From Dictyostelium discoideum (lineage: Eukaryota): a stretch of DNA of 64,000 nucleotides. The DNA lies in contig CM000151.3 in assembly GCA_000004695.1 (NCBI GenBank), positions 7,872,001 to 7,936,000 of the forward strand. The letters run 5' to 3'. Below the pieces are notes generated by a model. The model saw only the letters and a list, made by a program, of their open reading frames with translations, searched no databases and was not told the DNA's origin. Position 1 is the first letter of the stretch. Every line of letters begins with the position of its first letter. Positions 1 through 14,300 of the stretch are shown piece by piece. A program made the position numbers and the translations under genes.

Positions 1-188
1 ACAAATAAATAAATAAATAAACTATTTTAAAAAGCCATCTTTTTACTTTATTGTAATTTATTATTTGTTTCGTTTTGAGAATTTTGCGTAGCAAAATTTT
101 CAAAAAAAAAGCAAAAAATAATCAGATCGAAAAAAACAAACAACAACAATCTCTTTTTTTGATTATTTCATTTTTCATATAAAAAAGA

Positions 189-224
<36 letters not shown>

Positions 225-1931
225 GGAACCCAAGTTAATCAGAAAATTTCCAGATTTTTAACTTTTTAAAGAAAAATAAAAAAAATAGAAAGAAAATAAG
301 ATGAAAATCACAAACAACACCACAAATATTAAGCAACACAAATGCCTACAAAAAATAAGCGAAATTGTGGATAAAACTCAATTAAAAAAAAAACAATTCA
401 AATACGTCATAAACATCAATCACGAACCAGACGATAAAATAAAAAAAGATTTAGAAAAAAGTTTGGACAAAAAAGATGTTTTAATCAAAAGTAATAATAC
501 ATTCAAAATTCTCACAGACAGTATTAGTACAGTAATCTATTTTGTAAATATGTTTGATGCAGAATTAAAAGGACAATTTATAACCACTATAAGACCAAAA
601 AATATGTATACAGATTTTGATTGGTATAAATCACTCACAGAAATAGAATGGGTAATAGAAAATGAAGGATGTAAACTAATTAAATTAGAAATTAAAGGCG
701 AAACTCTAATTATCAAAACAGTGAAAAGAGTCGTAGAAGAATTTGACACTATCATTGAACTAGACAATCTAACATTAATTGGACACTCCAACAAAGGATG
801 GAGAGATCAAACCTCATTACCAGAAAATCAAGAAGAAAACAAAAATAAAAAACAATCAGATGAACAACAACCACAATCTACATCAGAACAAATACCAAAA
901 CAAGGAAAAAGAACAATCATTATCCCACCAATCACATCCTCATCTAATGATAAAACATTTATGGCCCTAGATGATACAGCTCAAAAGGTAATAGAAGCAT
1001 CACTAGAAAACGTAGATGAACTAACAAGAATAGAGAATGAGATCAATACACAATCGATAAACAATCAAGAAATTAAAACAAAATCAGAAAAACCTATCGA
1101 ACCACCATCTCCATACAATACACCAATAAAACAACACGGCGAAACAAAGGGACTAACAACGGAAGAAAAACTTAGAGAGGCAAATGATATCTTCGACTTC
1201 ACCAGCCCAAACACTGATGCAATAAGAAAAATAGAATTCCCACTTTCAATCCCTTCAAATCAATGGTTCTTCTCCTCTCCAATAAAACATATCATGAGTT
1301 TCAGCCCAACCTATGGTACACCATCGAAAATTATCGATTCACCAAGTAAATTGTTAAACACACCAAAAAAGAAACAACAAGACAAAACAAACAAGACCAA
1401 CAAAACACCAGTCAAACCAAAATTGGGTGAATATGGACAAAAAAGCATAAAAACAAAAATGGATGAAGATATAGACAACTTCAACAAGGAAATTCTAAAA
1501 CAAATCAATAAATCAAAAAACCCCACAAACACACAAGACCAACAACACAACGAACAAAGTAAAGATCAGTTAGAAGACAAAATAAACCAGAAACTTCAAA
1601 AGGTAGATAAAAATCTACCCCAAATAAAACTATAAAGAAAAACACAATAAGAATAGGTGTTTGGAACATCCAAGGATCCAACACCATCCAATCTGCCAGC
1701 ATAATAAACACCGTTTTAGACAACAACAAGCTGGACGCAGCACTTCTAACTGAAACAAATATAAAAACAAATAAAATTTACTCAATAAATCAACAATATA
1801 AAAACAAAATAACACACCACGCACCAATTGATAAAACAGGACAAGGGGTGTCACAAATCATCATCAACACCCGCAATAGAACTTCCTAAACATCTCAAAA
1901 AATACAATAATTCACTCAGTACTTTCTATAA

Positions 1932-1989
<58 letters not shown>

Positions 1990-2310
1990 CAAGTTAATCA
2001 GAAAAATAAAAAAGATAGAAAGAAAATAAAATGAAAATCACAAACAACACCACAAATATTAAGCAACACAAATGCCTACAAAAAATAAGCGAAATTGTGG
2101 ATAAAACTCAATTAAAAAAAAAACAATTCAAATACGTCATAAACATCAATCACGAACCAGACGATAAAATAAAAAAAGATTTAGAAAAAAGTTTGGACAA
2201 AAAAGATGTTTTAATCAAAAAGACCCTGTAAAAAAAAAAAATAAATAAAATGAGATCTAGCATCTCAAGGAGAAGCAAATAATAATTGCGTTATCCAATT
2301 CAAAAAAAAA
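1..2310 (+). mobile_element. TRE5-A non-LTR retrotransposon, TRE5-A.2-type deletion derivative, 5-prime end cut by the window edge. It contains an A-module remnant (1-180), poly(A), a B-module (220-300), ORF1, an ORF2 remnant carrying the 2.9-kb internal deletion, and a B+C module 3-prime UTR ending in oligo(A) at 2310.
   Basis: Near-identical to the two TRE5-A copies at 6830-15342. ORF1 at 301-1635 is 444 aa and ~99 % identical to them. The ORF2 deletion junction cacccgcaatag at about 1866-1882 is identical to that of copy 2. The C-module (gaccctgtaaaaa...aaatgagatctagcatctcaaggagaagcaaataataattgcgttatccaattc + A-run) lies at 2222-2310. Confidence 0.85.
301..1635 (+). CDS. TRE5-A ORF1 protein (444 aa)
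   Basis: Complete ORF, triplicated in the window (7581-8915, 10048-11382) with only a few substitutions. It sits downstream of the B-module, as in TRE5-A. Confidence 0.85.
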   Translation: MKITNNTTNIKQHKCLQKISEIVDKTQLKKKQFKYVININHEPDDKIKKDLEKSLDKKDVLIKSNNTFKILTDSISTVIYFVNMFDAELKGQFITTIRPKNMYTDFDWYKSLTEIEWVIENEGCKLIKLEIKGETLIIKTVKRVVEEFDTIIELDNLTLIGHSNKGWRDQTSLPENQEENKNKKQSDEQQPQSTSEQIPKQGKRTIIIPPITSSSNDKTFMALDDTAQKVIEASLENVDELTRIENEINTQSINNQEIKTKSEKPIEPPSPYNTPIKQHGETKGLTTEEKLREANDIFDFTSPNTDAIRKIEFPLSIPSNQWFFSSPIKHIMSFSPTYGTPSKIIDSPSKLLNTPKKKQQDKTNKTNKTPVKPKLGEYGQKSIKTKMDEDIDNFNKEILKQINKSKNPTNTQDQQHNEQSKDQLEDKINQKLQKVDKNLPQIKL

Positions 2311-2571
2311 ATTTATAAATATATATAATTAATAATTATATAATTGAATAATACTTTGTTATCTTTATTTAATATTAGTTTATATTTATAATATTCAATA
2401 TTGTTTATAAAATTATTCTTTAGTATTTATATTATTTATAATGAGTTGACAGTATTATTATTATTATTATTATTATATTATTTAAATGTGTGTCAACTAT
2501 AATTAGTAATGTAATATGCATATTTAATATCTATTAATTTTATAGAGTAACTTTATTACATATCCCCCCCT
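2311..2571 (-). repeat. 3-prime LTR, missing its terminal ~19 bp where it abuts the oligo(A) end of the TRE5-A C-module
   Basis: Alignment with 4668-4916. The expected terminal gctaacaagctttattaca is absent. PPT at 2572-2586. Confidence 0.65.
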
Positions 2572-2572
2572 T

Positions 2573-3183
2573 TTAGTTGAAAATTTTTTTCAATCTTTCA
2601 ATATTGACTACTTTATGATCTCTAAGATTACCCATATCTAATTTGAATGTAACATCGCTAACTTTTTCTTGAACTTTAAAAGGACCTCTCCAAGGTTTAT
2701 AGAATTTCTTTGGACCAATAGAAGTTTGTGAATATGGTGTATGTAAATAAACAAAATCACCTGTTTGAATATTTGTTGGACGACGACCTTTATCATAATT
2801 TGTTTTTTGTAATTCTTGAGCTTTATCGAGATTATTCTTTGTAAACCAAAAGGCACGTTTAAGATTATTATTTACGGATTGTGCATAATTATCAGCGAAA
2901 TCTAATCTTAGTGAATTTGTACATGGATTTCTTATTAATGGTTGAATTGAAGTTATTTGTGATTTAATTATTGAATTCTCTGTTTGATTTAATGATATTG
3001 ATTTTAATGGTAAATTTGATGTTATTGGTGAATCTATTGGTTCTTGGAATAAGAATTCTGGAATATCGTAATCTATTGGTAGTTGTTCTTCAATAGTTGG
3101 ATACGATTTGATTGATAGTATATGATGAGAATTAAAATTTTCAATTAAATGATCAGTATCTGTTAATAATTCTGATTTTGATG

Positions 3184-3217
<34 letters not shown>

Positions 3218-4469
3218 TGAATAATCAGATACTGTTTTAAATATAGTTTGTATACATGGTTGGGTTTCTTTAGATATTAATTTGGTACCAACATTGAATT
3301 CAAGATTCTTAATGATCATTTCTTTAAAATCAATTACTAAATTTAATCCAATTATTGTATCAATGCCAAATATACAATCAATTGATGTATCATTATCTTT
3401 AACAACATTAACTTTAACTCTAGCGAATGCTTTACCTAATTTAATTGTTGTGTTACTTATTCCAATGATTTTGATTTCATTATTTGATGCTGATTTAACA
3501 GAATATTGTTTATTTTCAATCTTTAATTTTAACTTTTTAGCAATACTTTCCCAAACAATAGTAAGTGATGAACCAGTATCAATCAAACCTCTAACATTTT
3601 TATTATTTATTAATAAAGCTGCATTCATACTATCTATTCCGATTGAATTAATTGTACTATTATTGACCATTGTAATTGAATTAGTTCTATTATTGTAATT
3701 GTTATTATTATTTTTATCTTTTGACCAACACTCTTGAATTACATGACCTTTCTTTTTGCAGTATTTACAAAATTTTGTGATTGAATTTACTTGATTTTGT
3801 GGTGCTTTATAAGGGGATGATTGTGGTGAATATGTTTGATTTTTATAAATTGGAGTTGCTAATACTTCAGTTTCAGTAGATTGTTCAGTTTGAGATGTAA
3901 CGTACTGTGGTGATGTTGTATAACCAGATCTAGAACCAAGATACTTTTGAGTTCCAAATTCTTGTAATGTTTTTGCAACCAATTGACCAGTATACATTGA
4001 TCTACCTCTCATACGAATTGAACCATCTTCACAAGACTTTGCAATATCTATTGCTCTTTTTAATGATTTTGGTGCACATTTTGTAATTTCAATACCCAAT
4101 TCAGTACCAACAGCTGAATAAAACAATTGTATTTTAAACTTTTCTGAAATATCAACTGCTGAACATTTTGATAGAAATTTACCAATTAATATATCTAATG
4201 TATTGTATTTATATTCTCCCAACTTTGTTAATTCTGTTAAATCATCACTATCACCAATATCAAAAGCATCTTTAAGATCTTCAATTATCTCCATTGCTGT
4301 TAAGTCTGTATCCAATGTTGCGGCATATTCCAATGCATTGTTTCTTAGTTTTCTAATAATATCAGCTTTCGATATTTCCTCGCCATGAATTAGTAAGAGT
4401 AAGTGTTTGAATTTACGAAATGATAAACCTTTTCCATCGCCCGAAAAAATTATGTTTTCATTATTATTC

Positions 4470-4471
<2 letters not shown>
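2573..4471 (-). CDS. gag-pro-(deleted pol)-integrase C-terminus fusion ORF of the LTR element (632 aa)
   Basis: CCHC zinc knuckle CKYCKKKGHVIQEC. Aspartic protease motif LIDTGSSL. The C-terminus ...GDFVYLHTP...KPWRGPFKV...FKL...H.VVNIERLKK is typical of Ty3/gypsy integrase tails. No RT or RNase H motifs lie between. Confidence 0.6.
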
Positions 4472-4539
<68 letters not shown>

Positions 4540-4635
4540 TATTAAATTAAATTTAATCTAATGTACAATTTTAATTGATTGAATAATTTGATAACTTTAT
4601 ATTTATAGTATATTTTTTTTTTTTTTTTTGAAAGA

Positions 4636-4646
4636 CGATGTCGCCA
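4636..4646 (-). promoter_or_regulatory. Primer-binding site of the LTR element, TGGCGACATCG in element sense
   Basis: The + strand reads CGATGTCGCCA, identical to the last 8 nt of the tRNA-Ser(AGA) gene at 6701-6782 plus CCA. It lies 2 nt from the LTR end. Confidence 0.55.
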
Positions 4647-4648
4647 AA

Positions 4649-4916
4649 TGTAATAAAGCTTGTTAGCTTTATAAATATATATAATTAATAATTATATAAT
4701 TGAATAATACTTTGTTATCTTTATTTAATATTAGTTTATATTTATAATATTCAATATTGTTTATAAAATTATTCTTTAGTATTTATATTATTTATAATGA
4801 GTTGACAGTATTATTATTATTATTATTATTATATTATTTAAATGTGTGTCAACTATAATTAGTAATGTAATATGCATATTTAATATCTATTAATTTTATA
4901 GAGTAACTTTATTACA
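4649..4916 (-). repeat. 5-prime LTR, 268 bp
   Basis: TG...CA ends. Identical to the copy at 2311-2571 except that copy lacks the last 19 bp. Confidence 0.7.
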
Positions 4917-4949
4917 TTAGAATTAATTTACGTAATAAAACCTCTTTTG

Positions 4950-5056
4950 TAAGTTTGGAAACAAATCATCCCGTTCGATCTGATAAGTAAATCGACCTCA
5001 GGCCTTCCAAGTACTCTGGTTGGAGACAACAGGGGAACATAGGGTGCTGTATACTT
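4950..5056 (+). pseudogene. 5S rRNA-derived sequence, 5-prime truncated by ~15-17 nt. It is followed by a TTTATTT terminator-like run, 11 nt and poly(A), and flanked by aaaacctcttttg direct repeats, so it looks like a retropseudogene.
   Basis: ...GTTTGGAAACAAATCATCCCGTTCGATCTGATAAGTAAATCGACCTCAGGCCTTCCAAGTACTCTGGTTGGAGACAACAGGGGAACATAGGGTGCTGTATAC matches the eukaryotic 5S consensus, including box-C-like CCCGTTCGATC and the 3-prime GGGTGCTGTATAC. The 5-prime strand of helix I (GTATACGGCCATAC) is missing. Poly(A) at 5072-5103. Direct repeats at 4937-4949 and 5100-5112. Confidence 0.55.
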
Positions 5057-5070
5057 TATTTACTCCGATT

Positions 5071-5099
<29 letters not shown>

Positions 5100-5106
<7 letters not shown>

Positions 5107-5199
5107 CTTTTGCATGACCCTGTAAAAAAAAAAAAAAAATAAAATAAAATGAGATCTAGAATCTCAAGGACAAGCAAATAATAATTGCGTTATCCAATT

Positions 5200-5234
<35 letters not shown>

Positions 5235-5243
5235 CTTTTGCAT
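5100..5243 (+). mobile_element. Solo TRE5-A C-module (extreme 5-prime truncation) with a 15-16-bp target-site duplication aaaacctcttttgcat
   Basis: C-module at 5117-5231 (gaccctgtaaaa...aaatgagatctagaatctcaaggacaagcaaataataattgcgttatccaattc + A-run). Identical 16-mers at 5100-5115 and 5228-5243. Confidence 0.7.
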
Positions 5244-5489: not shown

Positions 5490-5955
5490 TTACAAAAGAC
5501 CACTTTCGTTACATTTAAAGGTATAGATCGGAAATAAGATTACATTCAAGATAAAAGTGGAGCTTCCAAAATAACGTGGAGTGGAAATATTCAACAAACT
5601 GGATATTCCACTAACAGCCAACGCCATAGCTATAATATGTGAAAACATTTGGAAAAGAAGAAACAAAAGAATACACGAAGAAATCACTCTCAAAAACTTA
5701 AGAAAAGAAAAACCCAAACATCTTTTAATGAAAACGCAAGAAGCTGCCTGGGAAAGAACCAAAAAAACATATATAAATTAATAAGACAATCAAAAAAAGC
5801 AACAAAGATTGAAGCATCGAAAAAATTCAAATCCATCATCACCTCACAACTCGAAATATTCAGCAAAAACTAGAACTCTCCTCTATACATAGCAACACTA
5901 ATACCAAACCTAAACAAATATATAACATCACTCAACACACTCTATACCCTCAACA

Positions 5956-6018
<63 letters not shown>

Positions 6019-6150
6019 TAATACCACCCAAAAAAAAAAAAAAAAAAAAAAAAAGGGGACCATTGTAAAATTTAAACCTACTATAATGAAATGAGAAGAA
6101 TCTCTAGAAGAAGCAACTCACAATTGCGTTACTCCATTCAAAAAAAAAAT
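5490..6150 (+). mobile_element. 5-prime-truncated 3-prime fragment of a non-A member of the TRE5 family (TRE5-B/C-like): degenerate ORF2 C-terminus plus a diverged C-module and oligo(A)
   Basis: Translation 5581-5781 (...LDIPLTANAIAIICENIWKRRNKRIHEEI...KTQEAAWERTKK) is ~45 % identical to the TRE5-A ORF2 C-terminus (LQIALVANLIAIIFDKIWHKRNKLIHDEKEI...KTQRAAWDRTQ). 6060-6150 (aaatgagaagaatctctagaagaagcaactcacaattgcgttactccattcaaaaaaaa) is homologous to the TRE5-A C-module. A-runs at 5960-6055. Confidence 0.5.
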
Positions 6151-6700: not shown

Positions 6701-6782
6701 CGACATCGGCAGGGTTCGAACCTGCGCCCCCGAAGGGATCTGATTTCTAGTCAGACGCATTAGACCACTTTGCTACGATGTC
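6701..6782 (-). tRNA. tRNA-Ser (anticodon AGA), class II with a long variable arm, no intron
   Basis: Reverse complement: GACATCG TA GCA AAGTGGTCTAA TGC G TCTGA CTAGAAA TCAGA TCCCTTCGGGGGC GCAGG TTCGAAC CCTGC CGATGTC G. The 7-bp acceptor stem pairs, the T-arm is GCAGG/TTCGAAC/CCTGC, the anticodon loop is CT-AGA-AA, the A box is TAGCAAAGTGG and the B box GGTTCGAACCC. A T5 Pol III terminator lies 5 nt downstream on the - strand (6692-6696). Confidence 0.9.
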
Positions 6783-6813
6783 TTTGAAGTTTAGAATGAA
6801 CGTCGTATCTCAA

Positions 6814-6829
6814 ATTGTATGAAATTTAA
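6814..6829. repeat. Target-site duplication copy 1, (a)ttgtatgaaatttaa(g), 32-47 bp upstream of the tRNA-Ser gene
   Basis: The same 15-16-mer recurs at 9595-9610 and 15343-15358, each at a TRE5-A boundary. Confidence 0.8.
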
Positions 6830-7454
6830 GATTATTTCATTTTTCATATAAAAAAGACTTAAAAAACAAATAAATAAATAAATAAACTATTTTAAAAAGC
6901 CATCTTTTTACTTTATTGTAATTTATTATTTGTTTCGTTTTGAGAATTTTGCGTAGCAAAATTTTCAAAAAAAAAGCAAAAAATAATCAGATCGAAAAAA
7001 ACAAACAACAACAACAATCTCTTTTTTTGATTATTTCATTTTTCATATAAAAAAGACTTAAAAAACAAATAAATAAATAAATAAACTATTTTAAAAAGCC
7101 ATCTTTTTACTTTATTGTAATTTATTATTTGTTTCGTTTTGAGAATTTTGCGTAGCAAAATTTTCAAAAAAAAAGCAAAAAATAATCAGATCGAAAAAAA
7201 CAAACAACAACAACAATCTCTTTTTTTGATTATTTCATTTTTCATATAAAAAAGACTTAAAAAACAAATAAATAAATAAATAAACTATTTTAAAAAGCCA
7301 TCTTTTTACTTTATTGTAATTTATTATTTGTTTCGTTTTGAGAATTTTGCGTAGCAAAATTTTCAAAAAAAAAGCAAAAAATAATCAGATCGAAAAAAAC
7401 AAACAACAACAACAATCTCTTTTTTTGATTATTTCATTTTTCATATAAAAAAGA

Positions 7455-7460
<6 letters not shown>
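6830..7460 (+). repeat. Tandem array of TRE5-A A-modules (3 full + 1 partial, ~199 bp each)
   Basis: Repeating unit attatttcatttttcatataaaaaagacttaaaaaacaaataaataaataaataaactattttaaaaagccatc...caatctctttttttg. Confidence 0.85.
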
Positions 7461-7505
<45 letters not shown>

Positions 7506-7580
7506 GGAACCAAGTTAATTAGAAAATTTCCAGATTTTTAACTTTTTAAAGAAAAATAAAAAAGATAGAAAGAAAATAAA

Positions 7581-8915
7581 ATGAAAATCACAAACAACAC
7601 CACAAATATTAAGCAACACAAATGCCTACAAAAAATAAGCGAAATTGTGGATAAAACTCAATTAAAAAAAAAACAATTCAAATACGTCATAAACATCAAT
7701 CACGAACCAGACGATAAAATAAAAAAAGATTTAGAAAAAAGTTTGGACAAAAAAGATGTTTTAATCAAAAGTAATAATACATTCAAAATTCTCACAGACA
7801 GTATTAGTACAGTAATCTATTTTGTAAATATGTTTGATGCAGAATTAAAAGGACAATTTATAACCACTATAAGACCAAAAAATATGTATACAGATTTTGA
7901 TTGGTATAAATCACTCACAGAAATAGAATGGGTAATAGAAAATGAAGGATGTAAACTAATTAAATCAGAAATTAAAGGCGAAACTCTAATTATCAAAACA
8001 GTGAAAAGAGTCGTAGAAGAATTTGACACTATCATTGAACTAGACAATCTAACATTAATTGGACACTCCAACAAAGGATGGAGAGATCAAACCTCATTAC
8101 CAGAAAATCAAGAAGAAAACAAAAATAAAAAACAATCAGATGAACAACAACCACAATCTACATCAGAACAAATACCAAAACAAGGAAAAAGAACAATCAT
8201 TATCCCACCAATCACATCCTCATCTAATGATAAAACATTTATGGCCCTAGATGATACAGCTCAAAAGGTAATAGAAGCATCACTAGAAAACGTAGATGAA
8301 CTAACAAGAATAGAGAATGAGATCAATACACAATCGATAAACAATCAAGAAATTAAAACAAAATCAGAAAAACCTATCGAACCACCATCTCCATACAATA
8401 CACCAATAAAACAACACGGCGAAACAAAGGGACTAACAACGGAAGAAAAACTTAGAGAAGCAAATGATATCTTCGACTTCACCAGCCCAAACACTGATGC
8501 AATAAGAAAAATAGAATTCCCACTTTCAATCCCTTCAAATCAATGGTTCTTCTCCTCTCCAATAAAACATATCATGAGTTTCAGCCCAACCTATGGTACA
8601 CCATCGAAAATTATCGATTCACCAAGTAAATTGTTAAACACACCAAAAAAGAAACAACAAGACAAAACAAACAAGACCAACAAAACACCAGTCAAACCAA
8701 AATTGGGTGAATATGGACAAAAAAGCATAAAAACAAAAATGGATGAAGATATAGACAACTTCAACAAGGAAATTCTAAAACAAATCAATAAATCAAAAAA
8801 CCCCACAAACACACAAGACCAACAACACAATGAACAAAGTAAAGATCAGTTAGAAGACAAAATAAACCAGAAACTTCAAAAGGTAGATAAAAATCTACCC
8901 CAAATAAAACTATAA
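7581..8915 (+). CDS. TRE5-A ORF1 protein
   Basis: 444-aa ORF, ~99 % identical to 301-1635 and 10048-11382. Confidence 0.85.
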   Translation: MKITNNTTNIKQHKCLQKISEIVDKTQLKKKQFKYVININHEPDDKIKKDLEKSLDKKDVLIKSNNTFKILTDSISTVIYFVNMFDAELKGQFITTIRPKNMYTDFDWYKSLTEIEWVIENEGCKLIKSEIKGETLIIKTVKRVVEEFDTIIELDNLTLIGHSNKGWRDQTSLPENQEENKNKKQSDEQQPQSTSEQIPKQGKRTIIIPPITSSSNDKTFMALDDTAQKVIEASLENVDELTRIENEINTQSINNQEIKTKSEKPIEPPSPYNTPIKQHGETKGLTTEEKLREANDIFDFTSPNTDAIRKIEFPLSIPSNQWFFSSPIKHIMSFSPTYGTPSKIIDSPSKLLNTPKKKQQDKTNKTNKTPVKPKLGEYGQKSIKTKMDEDIDNFNKEILKQINKSKNPTNTQDQQHNEQSKDQLEDKINQKLQKVDKNLPQIKL

Positions 8916-9211
8916 AGAAAAACACAATAAGAATAGGTGTTTGGAACGTCCAAGGATCCAACACCATCCAATCTGCCAGCATAATAAACACCGTTTTAGA
9001 CAACAACAAGCTGGACGCAGCACTTCTAACTGAAACAAATATAAAAACAAATAAAATTTACTCAATAAATCAACAATATAAAAACAAAATAACACACCAC
9101 GCACCAATTGATAAAACAGGACAAGGGGTGTCACAAATCATCATCAACACCCGCAATAGAACTTCCTAAACATCTCAAAAAATACAATAATTCACTCAGT
9201 ACTTTCTATAA

Positions 9212-9267
<56 letters not shown>

Positions 9268-9594
9268 CAAGTTAATCAGAAAAATAAAAAAGATAGAAAG
9301 AAAATAAAATGAAAATCACAAACAACACCACAAATATTAAGCAACACAAATGCCTACAAAAAATAAGCGAAATTGTGGATAAAACTCAATTAAAAAAAAA
9401 AAAACAATTCAAATACGTCATAAACATCAATCACGAACCAGACGATAAAATAAAAAAAGATTTAGAAAAAAGTTTGGACAAAAAAGATGTTTTAATCAAA
9501 AAGACCCTGTAAAAAAAAAAAAAAAATAAAATGAGATCTAGCATCTCAAGGAGAAGCAAATAATAATTGCGTTATCCAATTCAAAAAAAAAAAA

Positions 9595-11384: not shown

Positions 11385-14300
11385 AAAAACACAATAAGAA
11401 TAGGTGTTTGGAACGTCCAAGGATCCAACACCATCCAATCTGCCAGCATAATAAACACCGTATTAGACAACAACAAGCTGGACGCAGCACTTCTAACTGA
11501 AACAAATATAAAAACAAATAAAATTTACTCAATAAATCAACAATATAAAAACAAAATAACACACCACGCACCAATTGATAAAACAGGACAAGGGGTGTCA
11601 CAAATCATCATCAACACCCAAATAAAAACAACAACAAAAACAATAAACGAAAGAATTATATCTTCCGAATGGATGATTGCAAAAACACAGATCAAATGCA
11701 CAACCATTTATGCCCCAGCAAAGTCAAACGAAAGACATGAATGGTATAAGGAAAATCTCACAGAAGAAATACTACACAGCGATATTATAACTGGAGACTT
11801 CAATGTAGACTGTTCAGTGGATAATAACCTTAACAAATATATTAAAACAATCTTCGACGAATTCGAATTTACAGAAATTAAGAATGGAATCACATTTCCA
11901 AGAAACAAATCAACCATCGATAGGGTCTTTGTCTCAAAGAAGATACTCCATCTAAACCCAATAGTTACTACTAAGGAAATCAAATTAAAATCTGATCACA
12001 ACATGGTAATCATTGAATTAAAAATACCAGAATACGAGCAACAAAAGAAAGGAGAAAGACTATGGAGACAAAACCTAGAAACTCTCAAAATGAATTCAAC
12101 CAGCCTCAAAATTAATAAAACAATTAAATACTACAATAAAAAATTCGAAGAGAACACCAGCAAATGGTACAAATTAAACATTTGCGAACAATGGTTGAAA
12201 CTAAAAGATGAAATAAAGAAACTGTCAATTAATATAGAAATTAGAGAAAGCAATAAAACCAAAAACAAACTAAAAGAACTCGCAGAAAAACTCGAAACAG
12301 CCAAAGATTCAAGAGCAATCTTCCTTAAAGAAGAGATCAACAATATTCTAAAGGAACAAGTAAGAATAAAACAAGCAAACCAAACCAACACCCACATCAA
12401 CAACAAAGAAACACCATCAAAATACTTAACCAGAAGGTTAAAAGTCCAAAGAAAGACAAATGAAATCCCTCAAATTCTAGATCCAAGCAACAATTGTTTG
12501 GTAACAAAAAACGAGGATATCCTCGAAGTAGCAAGAAGATATTACGAGAACCTGTACCAGAAGAGAGAATGCAACGAAGACACTCACCACGAACTCCTAA
12601 AAACATTCAATAAAAGGATTGATCAAAAGATATTGGACGAAATTAATCAACCAATAGAAGGATATGAAATCAGACTAGGCATTGAAAAAATACAAGAAGG
12701 AAAAGCACCTGGTAAAGATGGACTCCTTCCAACATTTTACAAAAACCACATTAATGAAATTCTACCAATAATATCAAAACTATACAATCACTTCTGGAAC
12801 ACAACAATCCCAAAGGACTTCAAACAAGGGATATTGATTACTATATATAAAAACAAAGGAGACCCAAACAACCTGGATAATTATAGACCAATAACACTTC
12901 TAAATGTCGATTACAAAATCTATTCGAAAATAATCAACAATAGGATCCTGAAGTTCTTAAACAAAATAATCTCACCATTCCAAACTGGATTCGTACCAAG
13001 AAGACTACTGCACGATAACATCATCACCTTAAACTCAACAATAGAAATAATAAAACGAGAGATTAACACAAAAGAGGATATGGAACCAATCATAACATTT
13101 TATGATTTTGAAAAAGCATTCGATTCAATCTCACATAACGCCATTCTACGTACTCTTGCACATCTAAAACTACCACTCAAAATGGTCCTCACAATAATGA
13201 ACTTACTCAATGAATCAGAAACATCAGTGTACATCAATAACTCATTATCTAAAAGCTTTACATCAAAAAGAGGAACCAAACAAGGTGATCCTATCTCTCC
13301 CACTATCTTCGCATTAGTGGTTGAATGCATGGCAACTACTATAATAAATGACCGCTGCATCAATGGTGTAACCAAAGAAACCATTAAAATACTACAGTTC
13401 GCCGATGATACAGCAACAATAGCATACAACTTTATGGACCATTTCCTCATGAATGAATGGATCAAGAAGTTTTGCCAAGCAACCAGCGCAAAAATAAACC
13501 AAACCAAATGCTCGTGTATCACTTTCAAATGGAACACCAGAACGCTATACACCGTCATAAAATCAAACGAAAGGTACCTCGGCTTTGACTTCAACAATAA
13601 GGGTATCAAATCCAAAATCAATACAATCTCAGACAACATCAGAGCTAAACTAGTAACATGGAACTCAACTTCATCAACCTATATGGGCAGACTCATAATG
13701 GCAAAAACATATGCACTATCTCAGTTAACGTTCCACACTTACATCAACACCACACCACAACACAATAGTATTGAAAATAACATCGTAAAATTCGTTTTCA
13801 ACACAAAATCTAAAAACTCTCTTTCACTACAAAGAAGACAAAACAACTATATCAATGGTGGCCTAAACTTATGGAACCTGAAGACAAGAGAACTAGCACA
13901 GAAAGCATGGTTATTCGAAAGATACCTCCACCAAAGAGTAAGTAACACTCCTAGTTCATATATAAAACTGTGGGAAGAGGAACTCAAAAACAACAACAAC
14001 AACAAAACAACAACAAAACAAAATCAACTACAACTACACTGGCAATGCAAGCAAGCATGGACCCAATTAAAAACTCCACAAAATAAACAAACACACTACG
14101 AACACCTCCCAAAATTAAAAAAAATATACGAAGATATGATGACAACTCAATCTCCTGAACACAACAAATTCATACCAACTCCTGGCCAAAAAGAAATAAT
14201 GACCAAAATTAATAGCAAACACCTTCCATTTAAAGAAATCAAAAAAATAATAAACATGAAAGGTAGAGATCTATTATGGAGATACACACTGAAAGCACTA

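Follow-up and report, generated by a model that had tools for sequence, protein, structure and literature searches.

Ty3 of Saccharomyces cerevisiae is a Ty3/gypsy-type retrotransposon that integrates a few bp upstream of RNA polymerase III (Pol III) transcription starts, with the initiator tRNA-Met as its primer and a short, tRNA-complementary primer-binding site (PBS) of 8 nt located 2 nt from U5. In plants, the TR-GAG long terminal repeat (LTR) elements encode gag only and are mobilised in trans by an autonomous partner. In Dictyostelium, the known Ty3/gypsy retrotransposon DGLT-A, which targets tRNA genes, is the amoeba counterpart of Ty3 for studies of safe-site finding at these genes; Ty3 targets via TFIIIB, whereas the DGLT-A proteins bind Tfc4. 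Here, we describe a copy of DGLT-A at positions 2312-4916 of a 64,000-nt stretch of Dictyostelium discoideum DNA (contig CM000151.3, positions 7,872,001 to 7,936,000; hereafter the window, whose coordinates are used throughout). The best explanation of the locus as a whole, which we hold with good confidence, is a DGLT-A copy that belongs to a 2.6-kb non-autonomous lineage, is primed by tRNA-Ser, was targeted to a tRNA-Leu(UAA) gene and later received a TRE5-A.2 insertion. With less confidence, we consider it fairly likely that tRNA-Ser(AGA/UGA) primes DGLT-A via an 11-nt PBS and, jointly, that the short form has long persisted as a non-autonomous lineage under purifying selection, which parasitises full-length DGLT-A and may have outlived it in AX4-type D. 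discoideum.

DGLT-A has been described with an LTR of 265 bp, a consensus length of 5054 bp, insertion sites 13-33 bp upstream of tRNA genes, and one open reading frame (ORF) running from gag to integrase, which contains a CX2CX4HX4C motif and has a short integrase C-terminal extension without a chromodomain (PMC5006619). The PBS was published as TGGCGACATCGTCTTTC, 2 bp past the left LTR, no tRNA complementary to it could be identified, and none of the 20 DGLT-A insertions in the reference genome was full-length (PMC5006619). The RNase H and integrase N-terminal domains of DGLT-A bind Tfc4, a TFIIIC subunit, and a retrotransposition-competent DGLT-A is lacking (PMC6101501). The lack of such an element (PMC6101501) and a primer reported as unidentifiable (PMC5006619) set the limits on work with DGLT-A as a counterpart of Ty3. 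The family, the LTR, the PBS string, the polypurine tract and the tRNA-gene targeting are thus already published; the family and its general mechanism are otherwise ordinary, and the new details given below are modest.

Structure and family assignment of the element

The element is a 2.6-kb LTR element on the minus strand of the window, surrounded by AT-rich DNA. Comparison of positions 2312-2561 with 4668-4917 revealed direct repeats with 100% identity across 250 nt. The features of the element are given below, where L001 denotes the same locus in another D. discoideum strain and RT denotes reverse transcriptase.

4917-4920, minus strand: target-site duplication on the 5' LTR side, CTAA in element orientation; L001 has CTAA on both sides
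4649-4916, minus strand: 5' LTR of the DGLT-A element, complete, 268 bp, starting with TGTAATAAAG and ending with CTTTATTACA in element orientation (10-bp inverted termini)
4636-4646, minus strand: PBS TGGCGACATCG, 2 nt (TT, 4647-4648) inside the 5' LTR
2573-4471, minus strand: single ORF of 632 aa; it encodes gag, the zinc knuckle and protease, then what is left of the RNase H-integrase linker, and finally the integrase C-terminal SH3/GPF domain
3728-3769, minus strand: zinc knuckle CX2CX4HX4C (CKYCKKKGHVIQEC, aa 235-248), visible in the translation; the Pfam match to zf-CCHC_3 is weak
3356-3613, minus strand: aspartyl protease, aa 287-372, with DTG at aa 298-300 (Pfam PF13650, E 8e-11; PF13975, E 1e-9)
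3008-3144, minus strand: region with deletion junction 1; homology ends at about full-length nt 1756, the start of RT, and is weak again at nt 3024-3110, with RT and RNase H gone
2576-2920, minus strand: integrase C-terminal part, aa 518-632, corresponding to aa 1309-1423 of the polyprotein P0007 with 90% identity
2563-2574, minus strand: polypurine tract AAAAGGGGGGGA; TA (2561-2562) separates it from the 3' LTR
2312-2560, minus strand: 3' LTR, whose final 19 bp (GCTAACAAGCTTTATTACA) are missing in the window

An LTR element with a 268-bp LTR and 10-bp inverted termini, an 11-nt PBS lying 2 nt inside the 5' LTR, and an ORF with gag, zinc knuckle, protease and integrase C-tail but without RT, RNase H and integrase core had been proposed in a preliminary description of the window. 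These features were borne out by the repeat comparison and the termini TGTAATAAAG/CTTTATTACA, by TGGCGACATCG at 4636-4646 on the minus strand, and by Pfam analysis together with the translation, respectively. The 5' LTR is 100% identical to both LTRs of L001, in which the 3' LTR is complete (11912-12179). The string TGGCGACATCG is the sole match in the window at ≤1 mismatch (chance expectation 0.03). Further copies were retrieved via their encoded proteins, and the polypurine tract is kept in L001, L002, L003, L004, L013 and L015.

The published PBS string is matched exactly at 4630-4646 on the minus strand, with TT at 4647-4648. Compared with the published values, the LTR measures 268 bp here, the full-length relatives measure ~5.06 kb (L013) and 5070 bp (L015), and the distance to the tRNA gene is 14 bp. 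The window copy therefore resembles DGLT-A (PMC5006619, PMC6101501) in the PBS string and its position, the LTR length, the polypurine tract, the single ORF with CX2CX4HX4C, the short integrase tail with GPF and no chromodomain, and the location 14 bp upstream of a tRNA gene, whereas it differs in being without RT, RNase H and the integrase zinc and core domains. By domain content, it is a deleted derivative of DGLT-A and not a full member. The target-site duplications are 4 bp long in all six complete DGLT-A-type insertions (L001 CTAA, L002 TTTC, L003 TCCG, L004 CATA, L014 AATC and L015 AAAA), in contrast to the 5-bp duplications of Ty3.

To place the missing domains, the ORF was compared with full-length relatives. 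Pfam analysis of the 632-aa ORF gave an Integrase_p58_C/SH3 match at aa 571-629 (E 3e-6), with GPF visible in the translation, and no RT, RNase H or integrase core. A whole-library HMMER search led to P0007, a 1423-aa polyprotein of Dictyostelium cf. discoideum, which carries protease, RVT_1, RT_RNaseH, Integrase_H2C2, rve and integrase C-terminal domains. Besides the C-terminal part listed above, aa 1-394 of the window ORF align with aa 1-397 of P0007 (83% identity) and aa 453-488 align with aa 835-872, the RNase H-integrase linker (E 5e-5); the RVT_1, RT_RNaseH, Integrase_H2C2 and rve domains of P0007 fall between the aligned pieces. RT, RNase H and integrase core are present in both P0007 and P0155, full-length relatives that are 82-83% identical. 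At the DNA level, the homology to the full-length element becomes strong again from nt 4420, after the weak stretch at nt 3024-3110, and deletion junction 2 corresponds to window 2919/2920, the upstream edge of the integrase C-terminal part, with the integrase zinc and core domains removed. The three-piece protein alignment and the breaks in DNA homology together point to a DGLT-A element with two in-frame deletions, one of RT and RNase H, and the other of the integrase zinc and core domains.

Two relatives deserve mention beside the window copy. An apparently intact full-length DGLT-A of 5070 bp was found in D. cf. discoideum (L015, 9588-14657; GCA_054859235.1, JBTAPI010000014.1), 14 bp upstream of tRNA-Ile(AAU). 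Its 1455-aa ORF encodes all domains and its 278-bp LTRs are 100% identical; it has the duplication AAAA and the same PBS 11-mer, and is a candidate retrotransposition-competent DGLT-A. In D. citrinum, a DGLT-A relative with 45% aa identity and identical 307-bp LTRs is located 14 bp upstream of tRNA-Arg(UCU) (L014, 9449-13682).

Complementarity of the primer-binding site to tRNA-Ser

The window contains one gene for the tRNA to which the PBS is complementary.

6701-6782, minus strand: tRNA-Ser(AGA) gene, one genomic copy encoding the tRNA that is proposed as primer, and not the site targeted by the element for integration

The 3' end of this gene reads ...CCUGCCGAUGUCG, with CGATGTCG as the last 8 encoded nt, and the first 11 nt of the PBS are the perfect complement of these 8 nt plus CCA. 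The 11 paired nt correspond exactly to the acceptor 3' strand, the discriminator G73 and CCA, and the following base is mismatched. The specificity of this match was analyzed in a sample of 34 tRNA genes (25 distinct sequences, 21 anticodon families) from 570 kb of Dictyostelium loci, scoring the match from the tRNA 3' end and allowing boundary errors of ≤2 nt. The 3'-anchored matches to the PBS complement were as follows.

Ser(AGA): 8 encoded nt
Ser(UGA): 8 encoded nt (two D. discoideum genes in L024 and one in D. dimigraforme)
Ser(GCU): 5 encoded nt
18 other anticodon families: ≤2 encoded nt

The tRNA-Ser 3' ending CGAUGUCG was not shared by any unrelated tRNA in the 21 sampled anticodon families. 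Among the retrieved copies, the 11-mer is invariant in eight from D. discoideum and D. cf. discoideum (the window copy, L001-L005, L013 and L015), while the bases 3' of it vary (TCTTTC, ACTC, TCTTA or TCTCTTG). Across subfamilies that are 74-92% identical, the conservation of the PBS thus stops where the pairing stops. The preliminary description had paired the PBS with the tRNA-Ser(AGA) of the window. The 11-nt complement stood, the 3' 8-mer was found in no unrelated tRNA among the 25 distinct sequences, and the same 11-mer occupies the same positions in every D. discoideum and D. cf. discoideum copy retrieved; the pairing is, however, neither AGA-specific nor tied to the gene in the window, since the 3' end of Ser(UGA) is identical. 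The tRNA-Ser(AGA) gene is found nearby because tRNA genes attract such elements, and its presence is incidental.

These results suggest that the primer of DGLT-A is probably tRNA-Ser(AGA/UGA), which would answer a point left open in the literature. Backed by the conservation across copies, this identity appears to be new relative to the literature searched, in which the PBS string TGGCGACATCG occurs in no other DGLT-A paper. The published 17-nt genome search probably failed because CCA is not genome-encoded, leaving only 8 of the 17 nt both complementary and encoded. In the proposed mechanism, minus-strand cDNA synthesis would start from the 3' end of tRNA-Ser annealed via its acceptor 3' strand, G73 and CCA, and the TT beside the PBS and the TA beside the polypurine tract would leave two terminal nucleotides to be trimmed by integrase.

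It might be argued that the complementarity is fortuitous and that the primer is another RNA, a tRNA fragment of other origin or the element RNA itself through self-priming. The published failure to find a complementary tRNA would agree with this, as would the end of complementarity after 11 nt and the divergence of the D. citrinum relative after 9 nt. We regard this explanation as quite unlikely, given that the match is anchored exactly at CCA and spans exactly the acceptor 3' strand and the discriminator base, that conservation ends exactly where complementarity ends, and that a second PBS complement is absent from the element. We put the probability of the 8 nt that follow TGG coinciding with one of ~60 distinct tRNA ends at ~60/65536 (0.001), and the failed 17-nt genome search is itself accounted for by the unencoded CCA and the 8 encoded nt. 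Priming by tRNA-Ser is therefore preferred over a fortuitous match.

Other priming arrangements were also considered. Beyond the PBS, no conserved complementarity of the element to tRNA-Ser was found; a bipartite PBS, of the kind present in Ty3 or Ty1, was rejected, as only 7-8-nt A/T-rich matches that are unconserved in the full-length element were obtained. Tf1-like self-priming was rejected as well, as the window holds no second PBS complement that could serve as substrate. A tRNA-Ser primer has been reported for the Ty3/gypsy-type errantiviruses of the Drosophila 17.6 group (17.6 and 297; PMC3383448), which differ from DGLT-A in having env, living in insect hosts and not targeting tRNA genes, and which are not closely related to it. 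On the practical side, the 11-nt pairing of PBS and tRNA-Ser names a cis sequence and a host tRNA to be kept in a marked DGLT-A.

A short form of DGLT-A shared by several loci

Copies with the architecture of the window element were found at the loci below.

L001: the same locus in another D. discoideum strain, 99.8% identical to the window, 14 bp from tRNA-Leu(UAA)
L002: second short copy (DDB_G0279931, 636-aa ORF), 92% identical to the window, 14 bp from tRNA-Ile(AAU)
L003: short copy of a divergent subfamily (633-aa ORF), 74% identical to the window, 12 bp from tRNA-Leu(CAA)
L004: short copy whose protein is the same as that of L003, 74% identical to the window, 14 bp from tRNA-Leu(AAG)

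The right junction of the deletion, at full-length nt 4420/4421, is common to the window copy, L002 and L003, even though L003 is only 74% identical. The short form occurs 12-14 bp upstream of at least four different tRNA genes, each insertion with its own 4-bp duplication, and the LTR pairs are identical in both copies compared (268/268 in L001 and 256/256 in L002). The short-form ORFs are intact (632, 636 and 633 aa). Between the short lineages, the dN/dS of gag-protease is 0.21-0.22, whereas that of the C-terminal part is 0.46-0.55, indicating a weaker constraint than in gag-protease. The shared right junction, the repeated insertions with their own duplications and the dN/dS of ~0.2 argue that the 2.6-kb form represents a propagating non-autonomous lineage, in which the deletion would be ancestral rather than private. 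The preliminary description had called the element a deleted copy; the loss of RT, RNase H and integrase core was correctly seen, but the term understates a deletion that appears ancestral to a repeatedly transposing short lineage. The comparison with other genomic copies that it had suggested showed the internal deletion to be shared, with the same right junction in the window, L002 and L003.

The divergence is not uniform along the element. Between the window copy and L002, dS is 0.09 in gag-protease and 0.57 in the integrase C-terminal part, whereas between the window copy and the full-length L015 it is 0.62 and 0.18, respectively. Such mosaic divergence suggests recombination between lineages, possibly through co-packaged DGLT-A RNAs.

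The window element could also be regarded as a dead copy with a private internal deletion, in which case there would be no transposing non-autonomous lineage; the D. discoideum copies have been described in the literature merely as not full-length and possibly unable to amplify. This is highly improbable, as at least four independent loci from two subfamilies share the architecture and right junction, every insertion comes with a 4-bp duplication of its own and an adjoining tRNA gene, the LTR pairs of the two copies compared are identical, and the ORFs of 632, 636 and 633 aa have remained intact with a gag-protease dN/dS of ~0.2. The differing flanks and duplications of the short copies also disfavour segmental duplication of one locus. 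The propagating lineage is therefore preferred over a private deletion.

As the short elements are without the Tfc4-binding domains and yet lie at canonical distances from tRNA genes, the missing proteins would have to come from elsewhere. We infer that RT, RNase H and integrase, including the Tfc4-binding domains, would be supplied in trans by full-length DGLT-A; the finding of elements without both Tfc4-binding parts 12-14 bp from tRNA genes agrees with an action of targeting proteins in trans. Among the copies retrieved, the intact full-length ones are both from D. cf. discoideum (L013 and L015), and one D. discoideum strain has an RT-bearing fragment (L005). A homology search with the RT-RNase H of P0007 returned mostly distant gypsy RTs and missed P0007 itself. 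A homologous-protein search with the C-terminal 200 aa of the ORF gave no matches, and neither did an exact-match search with the whole window ORF.

In its organization, the short form resembles TRE5-A.2 of Dictyostelium, which is internally deleted, keeps its terminal cis sequences and a gag-like ORF, and is mobilised in trans by an autonomous partner. It differs from both TRE5-A.2 and TR-GAG in that it also keeps the protease and the integrase C-terminal domain in frame, and its own mobilisation in trans would be of the kind proposed above. The short form also suggests a natural design for a mini-element, comparable to TRE5-A.2. Its recognition as an old lineage that is shared between loci and transposed repeatedly appears to be new relative to the literature searched, outside which the original 2001 repeat description lies. 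If the assignments hold, the primer and the short lineage, together with the intact L015, would provide parts for the competent DGLT-A that PMC6101501 calls lacking.

Integration target and the clipped 3' LTR

To identify the integration target, the orthologous locus was examined. In L001, the complete 3' LTR is followed by CTAA, 10 more bp and tRNA-Leu(UAA), with a total LTR-to-gene distance of 14 bp. The complete LTR at this distance indicates that the tRNA-Leu(UAA) gene, which is seen in L001 and lies outside the window itself, is the integration target. For the window copy, the tRNA-Leu(UAA) gene would accordingly be located just left of the window, with the insertion 14 bp upstream of it.

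The preliminary description had placed the element in a Pol III-gene neighbourhood, close to a 5S-derived sequence. The 5S-derived sequence is indeed present 19 nt from the LTR end, but it does not stand as the integration target, since tRNA-Leu(UAA) lies 14 bp from the 3' LTR in L001. Rfam 5S_rRNA matches 4936-5055 on the plus strand (46.8 bits), the first ~14 model positions not being 5S sequence, and the distance from the LTR end (4916) to the 5S model start is 19 nt. That the element was targeted to this 5S-derived Pol III sequence, 19 nt from the 5' LTR by the Rfam model coordinates, would be in line with the known targeting of 5S genes by TRE5-A. We consider it extremely improbable, because the 5S copy is itself a retro-insert without its first ~14 nt and with an 11-bp duplication and poly(A), and because the canonical DGLT-A distance of 14 bp is found on the opposite side, at tRNA-Leu(UAA). 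Integration of TRE5-A invariably takes place 44-48 bp upstream of a tRNA gene, the element's 5' end pointing towards the gene (PMC5391098). Without the DGLT-A element, the distance to tRNA-Leu(UAA) would be 43 bp for the 5S insert and 46 bp for a solo TRE5-A C-module, both upstream of the gene and with the 5' end towards it, like TRE5-type insertions. As these distances and orientations fit the TRE5-A rule, both are read as older retro-inserts at tRNA-Leu(UAA), which is retained as the target of the DGLT-A element.

The left neighbour of the element is a second transposon.

1-2311, plus strand: TRE5-A.2 non-LTR element with A-module (cut by the window edge), B-module, ORF1, ORF2 remnant, second B-module, C-module and oligo(A)

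Positions 1-2311 and 7264-9592 are 98.6% identical in a single alignment. Of three TRE5-A ORF1 copies searched for exact protein matches, one had none, and the other two matched only at loci of another strain. The shortened 3' LTR of DGLT-A meets the oligo(A) of the TRE5-A C-module at 2310/2311, and TRE5-A.2 is absent from the orthologous L001. The 14 bp to the gene and the missing 19 bp add up to 33 bp, and together with an 11-15-bp duplication to 44-48 bp from tRNA-Leu(UAA); the orientation of TRE5-A.2 is correct as well. In view of this distance, this orientation and the empty site in L001, the clipped LTR is best explained by a strain-specific, later insertion of TRE5-A.2 into the 3' LTR of DGLT-A. 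The insertion would split the 3' LTR, with its final 19 bp and the tRNA-Leu gene displaced beyond the left edge of the window. Left of the window, one would then expect the remaining A-module, an 11-15-bp repeat of TTTATAAATATAT..., TGTAATAAAGCTTGTTAGC, 14 bp and tRNA-Leu(UAA) on the minus strand. The clipping of the 3' LTR by 19 bp at the TRE5-A oligo(A), which the preliminary description had noticed, is thus real in the window but is not a deletion of the element, whose LTR is complete in L001.

A deletion, a recombination or an assembly misjoin at the TRE5-A/LTR boundary could likewise have removed the 19 bp, as the far side of TRE5-A.2 lies outside the window, with the remaining LTR end and the duplication out of view, and as repeat clusters are hard to assemble. 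Such an event is unlikely: the oligo(A) tail directly adjoins the LTR as target-primed reverse transcription leaves it, the 33 bp plus duplication and the orientation obey the strict TRE5-A rule, and the other strain holds an intact empty site. Insertion of TRE5-A.2 is thus favoured over loss of the LTR end.

Several observations weigh against the overall interpretation of the locus given at the outset. Low-complexity sequence at the left deletion junction prevents its placement to the base, and the mosaic divergence means that recombination with full-length elements may add to the apparent constraint on gag-protease. The insertion model of TRE5-A.2 draws on the empty site of another strain. 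For the primer, the sample covers 21 of roughly 40-45 anticodon families, so that another tRNA could share the 3' end, and the presence of tRNA-Ser on DGLT-A RNA is predicted from sequence complementarity. A degenerate D. dimigraforme copy differs at two positions of the 11-mer, and the D. citrinum PBS of L014, TGGCGACATAGCAGTG, matches tRNA-Ser over 9 nt only. A D. citrinum tRNA fitting this PBS would end CUAUGUCG (or CACUGCUAUGUCG); a tRNA with the corresponding 3' end CTATGTCG was absent from the retrieved loci and from a tRNA-pattern scan of JGI metagenomes.

Other retro-inserts in the window

Two retro-inserts lie next to the 5' LTR of the element. At 4939-5112 on the plus strand, a 5'-truncated 5S rRNA copy (4950-5055) is followed by a 16-nt tail, TTATTTACTCCGATTC, and then ~31 A residues, and it is flanked by an 11-bp duplication, AACCTCTTTTG. 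The tail TTATTTACTCCGATTC resembles the TRE3-type 3' end at window 6129-6145, and the 5S copy looks like a chimeric retropseudogene made by a LINE via template switching. A 5S-derived SINE family was considered and rejected, as a single locus was found in the 570 kb sampled, which indicates a single retropseudogene. At 5102-5243 on the plus strand, a solo TRE5-A C-module (5116-5200) is accompanied by ~30 A residues and a 14-bp duplication, AACCTCTTTTGCAT; it represents a TRE5-A copy with extreme 5' truncation, inserted at the target site that the 5S retro-insert also used.

The surroundings of the tRNA-Ser(AGA) gene are occupied in a similar way. At 6783-7284 on the plus strand, a TRE5-A element with tandem ~199-bp A-modules starts exactly 48 bp upstream of tRNA-Ser(AGA), its 5' end facing the gene, and a TRE3-type 3' end lies downstream of the gene (about 5500-6148), forming a textbook tRNA-gene transposon cluster.

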